From Malassezia furfur (lineage: Eukaryota): a DNA stretch of 64,000 nt. The position numbers were made by a program, and so were the translations under genes. The DNA lies in assembly GCA_052055015.1 (NCBI GenBank), contig JBQJIT010000001.1. One strand, given 5' to 3'. Below are positions 42,068 to 43,475 of this stretch, in pieces (position 1 is the stretch's first letter; each line of letters opens with the position of its first letter). The notes beneath the pieces are model-generated. The model made no database searches. It had not been told where the DNA came from and saw nothing but the letters and a program-made list of their open reading frames with translations.

Positions 42068-43475
42068 ATGCCGAGCCAAAAGCGTGGAGACAAGATGCGG
42101 AACGCAGCGACACAGGAGGCCCTGCGTAGCCCTATGCGCTATCGCCATGGCGCGGTCGTCACCAAAGGCGGCAAAATTATTGCGCGGGGACACAATCATA
42201 TTCGGACAGGCTTTAGTGGTCCCTTGTCCGCGCACGAGACGATTGTTTTGCCGAAGCACGCCCAGAATGACGCACAATGTTGTGCAAGCTGCACGGATGA
42301 GGAAGCACCGGCGCCGCGGCCCGGCCTCGCGAGCTCCTACTTTAGCATGCACGCTGAAATGCACGCCATTCACACAGTCTTGCGCGGCGCACGCCCTCAC
42401 CTGGCGCGCTCGAGCGTGCAGCTGTGTCCGACTCACGACGAAAATGTGGACGATGTGCTAACAGGCGCGACCTCGGCGCTTGCGCTCGACGCGAGCCGAT
42501 CCGCGGCCGCGAATCAGGACTGCTCCCGCTTGAGCGACGCATCCCACCCTGCTGGCCGCGTGAATGCGGCCAACGTCAAGACCAAGTGCGACCGTGCACT
42601 GGTCGAGGGTGCGAAGCGGGAGCAGCAACGCATCGCTTTTACCGCGCAGAACGAGTGGTGTCTTAAACCGCGCAATCAAGAACGAGCTGAAAAAAAACAA
42701 ACGCCACGCCCGCGTCCCAGCCGTTGCGGGGCGTGGGTGTGGCCAGTGGGTTGGTAATCAAGAGGCGCAGCGTCTCCGACACGAATTTCAGCAGCGGCGT
42801 GCCGAGCACCTTGCGCGCCGCAAGCAGGAGAAGCGCGAGCGCAAGGCACGTGGCCTCCGCGCCACGAGCTCCAGCGGGAGCTGCTCGAGCGATTCGACGA
42901 CCGAGTCCGATTCGACCAACTCGGGCGCGTCGTCGTCCGGCCCGTCAACCCCACCACTTTCTGTACAGGACAAGGGCGGCAAGCCACTGGACGGGGTGGC
43001 AGTACCGCCGGCCTTGTTGTCGAGCACGTTGGCGTACCGCCGTGTGCGTGCCACGTCGCGACCGCGTGAAGACGCGGGCGATTCGCGGCTGCGTGGTGCC
43101 GACCTGTATGTGGTGCGCCTCCTCCAGGACGTCGAGTCCAAGGCCAAGGCCAAGGAGCATCGGCGCCGGCATCAACGCGTAACGCCGGCCGTTGCGCCGC
43201 GTGCCGCGACGGCGACGCCCGTGAATGTCGTGCCGCGGTATGCCGACAGCCGGCCATGCTGGCGATGTCTCGAGTGGATGCTATGGGCTGGGATCAAGCG
43301 TGTCTACTGGACCAATACCGAAGGCGAATGGCACGGCGGCAAGGTGTCTGCGCTGCTCTTTGGCGAGGGTGTTGCGTCGGTGTCCAGCTCGCAGTCGGTG
43401 CTGGTTCCCGTGCATTTGACCCAGTACGAGCATGCAGCCGCATTGCTCGGTGCACACCACCGCGTCGCACGATGA
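42068..43475 (+). CDS. Cytidine/dCMP-deaminase-like zinc protein split over two overlapping frames (+1 shift near 42662-42668)
   Basis: ORF 42068-42757 has RHGAVVTKGGKIIARGHN and SMHAEMHAI. ORF 42564-43475 has GADLYVVRL, SRPCWRC and AGIKRVYWT. Together they make one complete deaminase fold. Confidence 0.8.

Follow-up and report, generated by a model that had tools for sequence, protein, structure and literature searches.

A probable programmed +1 frameshift in a deaminase-like gene of Malassezia furfur

How can one deaminase arise from a gene that encodes its two zinc motifs in separate reading frames? The question is raised by positions 42068 to 43475 of a 64,000-nucleotide (nt) stretch of Malassezia furfur DNA (contig JBQJIT010000001.1; hereafter, the window), where an upstream open reading frame (ORF1, the 0 frame) encodes an HxE motif and an overlapping ORF2, in the +1 frame, encodes a PCxxC motif. 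The cytidine deaminase (CDA) fold requires both zinc motifs within one domain. This arrangement, described in a first-pass annotation of the window, is confirmed here. Sequence comparisons make it likely that the whole enzyme is made by programmed +1 ribosomal frameshifting of the type used by the yeast element Ty1.

Two halves of a deaminase in overlapping frames

The features of the locus are as follows, and all coordinates given in the first-pass annotation match the window sequence.

42068..42757, plus strand: ORF1, 0 frame, N-terminal half; ATG at 42068, TAA at 42755-42757, 229 amino acids (aa) without a shift
42347..42361, plus strand: MHAEM, the HxE zinc and catalytic motif, 0 frame; invariant across 23 aligned N-terminal halves
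42564..43475, plus strand: ORF2, +1 frame, open from 42564 (ATG at 42564); TGA at 43473-43475
42653-42664, plus strand: GAG-TGG-TGT-CTT, read from the sequence
42655..42670, plus strand: 16-nt block GTGGTGTCTTAAACCG with the proposed shift site; identical in the window and in loci L001, L003, L004 and L007
42662..42668, plus strand: proposed +1 heptamer CTT_AAA_C, with CUU in the P site, AAA as 0-frame A-site codon and AAC as +1 codon
42666..43475, plus strand: portion of ORF2 that would be read after the shift (NRAIKNELKK...), +1 frame, from the selection pattern
42690..42697, plus strand: A8 run, outside the proposed signal and not conserved
42703..42743, plus strand: strong GC-rich hairpin predicted by folding, 41 nt 3' of the site
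43254..43268, plus strand: PCWRC, the PCxxC zinc motif, +1 frame; RYADSRPCWRCLEWM invariant in 11 aligned sequences

ORF1 and ORF2 have positions 42564-42757 in common, and when CTTA (42662-42665) is read as one step a single open product of 468 residues results. Translation thus reproduces both lengths first proposed, 468 aa with read-through and 229 aa without a shift. The N-terminus of ORF1, MPSQKRGDKMRNAA, is common to the orthologues. The GC content of third codon positions was also said to change frame at the site and does so, being 0.76 for ORF1 versus 0.64 for ORF2 over the 45 codons upstream, and 0.47 versus 0.65, respectively, over 42662-42757.

With respect to the CDA fold, HxE is present, PCxxC is present but in the +1 frame, and the profile cut-off is reached by the read-through product. 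ORF1 alone scores 18.6 bits against Pfam PF00383 (dCMP_cyt_deam_1), under the cut-off of 25, and the read-through (P0001) scores 26.2 bits, just above this gathering cut-off. In the AlphaFold2 model of the orthologue P0006, for which the mean predicted local distance difference test score is only 59.7, the confident core consists of residues 1-33, 82-90 (the HAE helix), 291-299 (a strand) and 343-376, the last being the PCxxC helix plus the subsequent strands. The linker of ~190 residues between the motifs is modelled with low confidence as part helical and part disordered. The frame break separates the HxE helix from the PCxxC strand and helix, and together these elements make up one domain in this predicted model. 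The top Foldseek matches of the model are deoxycytidine monophosphate (dCMP) deaminases, followed by other CDA-fold enzymes (best E 0.037, weak), and 4p9c is both the best fold match (probability 0.97) and the best Protein Data Bank (PDB) sequence match (E 0.035, weak). The dCMP deaminases of cyanophage S-TIM5 (PDB 4p9c), PBCV-1 (7fh4) and human (2w4l) share the HAE and PCxxC motifs and PF00383 with the Malassezia-type enzyme, which differs from them in its ~190-residue inter-motif linker, and all of these matches are weak. Because the top matches are dCMP deaminases but weak ones, the predicted product is called only a dCMP-deaminase-like CDA-fold enzyme, with no substrate assigned.

Conservation of the break and the change of frame under selection

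The read-through, used as a query in protein searches, retrieved Malassezia orthologues that differ in how they are annotated. Four are annotated as full-length proteins (M. vespertilionis, M. nana, M. caprae and Malassezia sp. CBS 17886), and the junction is crossed differently in each, the behaviour of gene predictors that invent introns. Six others are ORFs for the C-terminal half only, namely M. sympodialis MSYG_0455 and five assembly ORFs, one of which is the window's own. A search with ORF1 returned 22 proteins, 21 of which are N-terminal halves only, the remaining one being a gene model from M. cuniculi in which this part is skipped. In 20 of the 22, the pattern [WC]x[LF]KP is present in the 0 frame 28-44 residues ahead of the stop (WCLKP in 15, WGLKP in 3, WYLKP and CCFKP in one each), and two are without the motif. 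Inconsistent annotation of the orthologue is seen in public records P0003-P0006, P0008, P0041, P0084, P0086, P0114, P0134, P0144, P0148 and P0159, in which the junction is bridged by differing invented introns or only the N-terminal or only the C-terminal half is given. Public annotations of this gene are therefore wrong in several ways.

A scan of metagenome contigs yielded 21 loci (L001-L021). All five Malassezia-like loci covering the gene from end to end (L001, L002, L003, L004 and L007) have MHAEM in frame 0 and PCWRC in +1, and so need the same +1 shift, as a conserved frame break and motif would predict. The heptamer CTT_AAA_C is invariant, as is the block that contains it, in five distinct Malassezia-like sequences (the window, L001, L003, L004 and L007); in their alignment the codons that flank the block are variable, and the three codons 5' of it differ in nearly every sequence. 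The first-pass annotation had placed the switch upstream of the A8 run and argued against a homopolymer error there. This stands, as the frame change is at the block and relatives read AAAGAGAAAC or AAAGAAAAAC at the A8 position, all in the +1 coding frame. Because it is not conserved, the A8 run is also ruled out as a place of slippage.

Selection changes frame in the same region. In the Malassezia-like alignment, the codon-column table has upstream 0-frame columns (D, R, G, A and Q) with synonymous variation only, the same changes being non-synonymous in +1, and downstream +1-frame columns (R, A, I, E and K), starting at +7, that again vary only synonymously. The ratio of non-synonymous to synonymous variation (pN/pS) is 0.50 for ORF1 versus 0.82 for ORF2 from -150 to -27, and 0.45 for ORF2 versus 1.06 for ORF1 from +60 to +240, with values of 0.60 for ORF2 and 0.94 for ORF1 from -27 to +9. 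These patterns confine the switch to a stretch from about -27 to +6 nt relative to CTT. Within the block, the third positions of both frames are frozen, including those of TTA, the rarest Leu codon in the long ORFs of the window (21 of 16,175 codons, or 1.3 per 1000) and yet invariant here. The block is the only candidate signal within the switch zone and, placed by conservation, CUU_AAA_C is the best candidate slip site.

Across the whole scan, Malassezia-like loci included, PCxxC is at +1 in all 18 loci that have both motifs, L015 and L021 among them. The raw frame difference between HxE and PCxxC is +1 in 17 of these, and +2 in L019, the intron of which is 3n+1 long. L015 and L021, both single sequences, enter these counts on their raw difference of +1. 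We scanned for in-frame YTT-RAA motifs with the TTR in the frame of PCxxC, and the motifs at the candidate sites are as follows.

Malassezia-like: CTT AAA C
L008: TTT AAA A
L009 and L010: TTT GAA A / TTT GAA G, within TGC-GGT-TTT-GAA
L011-L014: TTT AAA G, within a 48-nt invariant stretch
L016 group: TTT AAA G/C, and TGG CG[TG] [CT]TT GAA CC[GA]

The basidiomycete-like loci L011-L014, close to a Trametes coccinea protein, have no inter-motif intron, have indels that are all multiples of 3 and need +1; between HAE and the site, pN/pS is 0.22 for ORF1 versus 2.15 for ORF2, and from +60 to +150 it is 0.14 for ORF2 versus 1.2 for ORF1. The basidiomycete-like loci L016-L020 (the L016 group) have an intron right after HAE (GTAGGT...CAG; 114, 93, 121 and 120 nt) that carries indels that are not multiples of 3, all later indels being multiples of 3, and with this intron removed all four loci with both motifs still need +1 to reach PCWRC. 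Frame assignment in this group is independent of splice sites: pN/pS is 0.17 for ORF1 versus 3.1 for ORF2 from exon 2 to the first motif, and 0.49 for ORF2 versus 0.85 for ORF1 from the second motif to PCWRC. At the second site, the 0 frame reads W-R-[LF]-E-P, which matches E-W-C-L-K-P of Malassezia as well as QVQE[CW][GR]FE, the commonest ascomycete peptide among the matches listed. The first YTT-RAA of the group lies in a nearly invariant stretch of ~40 nt, where +1 reads VL[KN]RA, and the second reads GVLNRA in +1; one of the two may be a duplicate. L017 and L019 have one extra in-frame YTT-RAA each.

The ascomycete-like loci L008-L010, for which the nearest named relatives are Dothideomycetes, have MHSE[MT] and SRPCYR[CR] and also need +1. 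The 0-frame stop follows the motif after 6 codons in L010 and 12 codons in L008, and a conserved +1-frame L-K-x-x-H-L-N, with synonymous differences, begins right after the motif. The lone +1-frame stop of L009 is accounted for by a short candidate intron, in frame, at ~3500-3545 in the C-terminal half (GTGAGTAACTAAT...TTAG/CAG; 42 or 45 nt when counted by hand).

A search for ascomycete N-terminal halves (E <= 1e-5, 149-475 aa) returned 456 proteins, the best 120 of which were listed. PCxxC is missing from 116 of these 120, in a length range in which longer continuous forms were not searched for; the four that have PCxxC are all NCBI (National Center for Biotechnology Information) gene models in which the junction is bridged differently in each. 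The QVQ pattern is present in 79 of the 120 listed and has no match in 41. The site residues in the 79 are FE (56), FV (8), YE (2), IE, FG and CE (1 each), with 10 off-target matches. Both the break and the motif are repeated across independent assemblies and lineages, which puts the feature far beyond chance.

Alternative explanations

The frame break, its conservation in relatives, selection on both halves and the lack of an intron signal are direct observations; what they leave to be weighed is how the frame is changed. A bare frame break, with nothing more, could be an assembly error or a recent pseudogene, and this has next to no probability here. Independent assemblies and lineages share the break and both halves are under purifying selection.

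Restoration of the frame in the RNA, by a very short or non-canonical intron of length 3n+1, by one-base editing or by polymerase slippage, is very unlikely, although Malassezia has very short introns (averaging 30 bp in the curated annotation of M. sympodialis, 99% of them supported by RNA sequencing, according to the available text of PMC5389616) and predictors placed introns at this junction in four species. Because introns are so short in this genus, all GT/GC..AG pairs near the site that are 3n+1 long were listed. The only such GT..AG pairs in 42602-42691 start at GTCGAG 42602, with lengths of 79 or 85 nt, and would delete two peptide segments under selection, VEGAKREQQR and LNRAIK, so that the earlier statement that the site has no consensus 3n+1 intron holds. 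A 64-nt pair (3n+1) from GTGCGA 42586 to CGCAG 42649 was rejected, the 0-frame peptide CDRALVEGAKREQQR inside it being conserved with synonymous changes, and so was the GTCGCT..AAG pair of three relatives, for which the window has ATCGCT instead. No plausible 3n+1 GT-AG or GC-AG intron was found in the constraint-free zone of the window and relatives; the zone unconstrained in both frames is only ~36 nt long and has no 3n+1 GT..AG pair. The predicted introns vary between species, and in three lineages, the Malassezia-like relatives among them, every indel from the HxE region to PCxxC is a multiple of 3, unlike those in the true intron of the L016 group. The conserved block has no homopolymer at which a polymerase might slip, the A8 run not being conserved. 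In M. sympodialis, the C-terminal half MSYG_0455 is the sole listing, the annotation curated with RNA sequencing having left the halves unjoined; MSYG_0454, MSYG_0455 and MSYG_0456 had no match in the one supplementary file of PMC5389616 that was available.

The two halves could instead be separate polypeptides that assemble as a split enzyme, with ORF2 translated by internal initiation or reinitiation. MSYG_0455 is indeed annotated as a stand-alone C-terminal half, with an ATG 5 codons ahead of the site, and ORF2 of the window has its ATG at 42564. Separate translation is argued against because there is no conserved +1-frame ATG upstream: 6 of 15 loci lack one altogether in the interval from the upstream stop to the site, and in the others it lies anywhere from 5 to 73 codons upstream. 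The same in-frame motif, moreover, is always within the overlap and the break splits what is modelled in P0006 as one domain, and we regard a split enzyme as very improbable. A third possibility accepts a ribosomal +1 shift and moves it upstream of CTT by a few codons, to the vicinity of GCT-TTT for instance, with the block kept mainly for GVLNR in +1. In its favour, variation in the +1-frame columns at -32 (A) and -20 (P) is synonymous only, the L016 group also has GVLNRA in +1, and the pN/pS values from -27 to +9 favour ORF2. We nevertheless think this unlikely, as the block holds third positions fixed in both frames, the rare TTA among them, as the 0-frame E-W-x-[LF]-[KE] is common to ascomycete N-terminal halves among the matches listed (e.g. 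QVQEWRFE), as no other motif is common to all lineages, and as the Violaceomyces model reads ...AEW and then N.... A -1 shift on T_TTA_AAC was rejected, being in the wrong direction, from ORF2 into ORF1.

Programmed +1 frameshifting at the block remains the favoured explanation, and each comparative test run came out in its favour, as first proposed, with several observations that weigh against it. Splicing and editing are excluded only indirectly as ways to restore the frame. Malassezia and the L016 group share the +1-frame peptide GVLNRA and, because of this, part of the invariance of the block could reflect protein coding if the shift were placed farther upstream by a few codons. In the L016 group, two in-frame YTT-RAA sites stand ~185-205 nt apart (L016:3415 and L016:3598, and likewise in L017-L020), between which pN/pS is 0.70 versus 0.79 and does not tell the frames apart. 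Continuous proteins are annotated in Violaceomyces, Tilletia, Ceraceosorus and Trametes, and are known as protein models only. In the 26 long ORFs of the window (16,175 codons), AAA provides 25% of Lys codons (153 AAA versus 457 AAG), so that it is minor and not rare, and in-frame YTT-GAA pairs are not avoided (7 observed, 7.2 expected). UUU is the P-site codon in most other lineages, and its re-pairing on UUG or UUA is imperfect; re-pairing may not truly take place at the slip, above all at these UUU sites, where the wobble base would mismatch.

In P0010, the Violaceomyces palustris model, ...GQAEW is followed directly by NENAKQ.... If real, this model would be a gene in frame with the two site codons missing, from a lineage that lost the shift, and would hint at a junction between W and N.

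Proposed slippage and relation to known +1 sites

Ribosomes would initiate at the ATG at 42068 and read the 0 frame until they pause in the block, with peptidyl-tRNA(Leu) (tRNA, transfer RNA) on CUU (42662-42664) and the minor Lys codon AAA in the A site. The tRNA would then move one base forward, from CUU to UUA, so that AAC is decoded in +1 and translation continues to 43475, giving a 468-aa enzyme with the junction ...NEWCL|NRAIK.... The tryptic junction peptide predicted for slippage at CUU_AAA_C is IAFTAQNEWCLNR. Ribosomes that do not slip would end at 42757 and release a 229-aa fragment without the PCxxC half of the active site. That the event is ribosomal, the exact slip codon and the efficiency of the shift are inferences.

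Codon usage in the 26 long ORFs adds that AAC is the major Asn codon (71%) and that in-frame YTT-AAA pairs do not occur (0 observed, ~4.3 expected). No tRNA genes were found within the window. A stimulatory RNA structure is not claimed, as neither candidate has real support from covariation. The hairpin at 42703-42743 (z = -2.7 for a 120-nt fold) is partly kept in relatives, with one pair showing a compensatory change. A 5-bp mini-hairpin, GUGGU/ACCGC, is possible at 42655-42671, with the shift codons in the loop, and has no covariation because the block is invariant. In L009 (~2778-2800) and L010, UGCGG/CCGCA pairing appears by eye to be possible around TTT GAA.

The closest likeness is to the sites of Saccharomyces cerevisiae, which have the heptamer CUU_AGG_C in Ty1, ABP140, YFS1 (YPL034W) and LLP1 and CUU_AGU_U in EST3, and at which, in Ty1, ABP140 and YFS1, peptidyl-tRNA(Leu) slips from CUU to UUA while awaiting a slow A-site codon, as given in the available text of PMC12719033 and PMC12661321. 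The first-pass assignment of a P-site CUU before a codon starting with A to the Ty1/ABP140/YFS1/EST3 type agrees with what these sources describe. The deaminase locus has in common with the Ty1 type a P-site CUU followed by A, possible re-pairing on UUA, a 0-frame A site filled by a sense codon, and overlapping ORFs of which the downstream one is in +1 without its own start; a +1 overlapping ORF with no conserved start of its own, a heptamer that permits re-pairing, and a conserved break accompanied by a switch in selection were all found. It resembles YFS1 further in a heptamer conserved across species and a synonymous pattern that switches frame, the same argument having been used for YFS1 (PMC12719033 and PMC12661321, in the text available). 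It differs from the Ty1 type in the A-site codon, which is AAA (GAA or AAA in other lineages) and not AGG or AGU, and in the P-site UUU of most non-Malassezia lineages. The deaminase break is present in both Basidiomycota-like and Ascomycota-like loci, whereas YFS1 shifting is described as confined to the Saccharomycetaceae in the available text of PMC12719033.

Fungal antizyme, which in the Agaricomycotina shifts at UUU_UGA with a nascent-peptide stimulator (PMC5009743, available text), is a second point of comparison. Like the deaminase break, the antizyme shift is a deeply conserved cellular +1 event, with a P-site UUU (in the Agaricomycotina) and a conserved upstream 0-frame peptide, the antizyme peptide being comparable to QVQE[CW][GR]F of ascomycete N-terminal halves among the matches listed. 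Antizyme, however, shifts at a stop codon, and the 0-frame stop of the deaminase lies 6-106 codons past the candidate sites. An antizyme-type shift at a stop was rejected for the Malassezia-like loci, in which the A site is AAA and the ORF1 stop is 31-33 codons downstream. We know of no antizyme-like link to polyamines for the deaminase. The +1 sites of influenza A PA-X and of amalgaviruses are UUU_CGN; these resemble the deaminase sites in a P-site UUU and perhaps in an A-site sense codon that is decoded slowly, and differ in the A-site CGN, in hosts and in gene lineage.

A literature search, with subscription journals outside its coverage, found no report of frameshifting in this deaminase family. 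In the available text of a 2016 recoding review, mention is made only of the Agaricomycotina antizyme and of a Bacillus cytidine deaminase with an incidental -1 shift (PMC5009743), and the available text of a survey of the deaminase fold does not describe this family (PMC3239186). The budding-yeast genes with +1 frameshifts given in the text available from PMC12661321 are ABP140, EST3, OAZ1, YFS1 and LLP1. Except for antizyme, these are lineage-restricted, and altogether the cellular genes known to depend on +1 frameshifting are very few. A YUU-RAA break extending from Malassezia to Dothideomycete-like ascomycetes would rank among the oldest cellular frameshifts known, its heptamer class would be previously undescribed, and it would offer a natural system for how a sense codon, AAA or GAA, drives +1 slippage.

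The A-site codon ends in A, being AAA or GAA in every DNA sequence examined, and by inference it would be GUA or GGA in the few ascomycete ORFs that read F-V or F-G. A-ending codons such as AAA and GAA are read by tRNAs with a modified wobble uridine (5-methoxycarbonylmethyl-2-thiouridine, mcm5s2U, or 5-carbamoylmethyluridine, ncm5U). Since such tRNAs read the A-ending site codons, the rate of slippage would report tRNA supply or modification state. It is conceivable, though doubtful, that the recoding is ancient, predating the split of ascomycetes and basidiomycetes, and that the slip rate is a translational sensor that sets the level of the deaminase. The sensor would then be built into a gene for the modification of nucleotides or nucleic acids.

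Downstream of the deaminase locus, at 43903-49197 of the window, there is an ORF of 1764 aa, stop to stop, rich in low-complexity Ser/Pro/Gln sequence and in repeated QGMP motifs.

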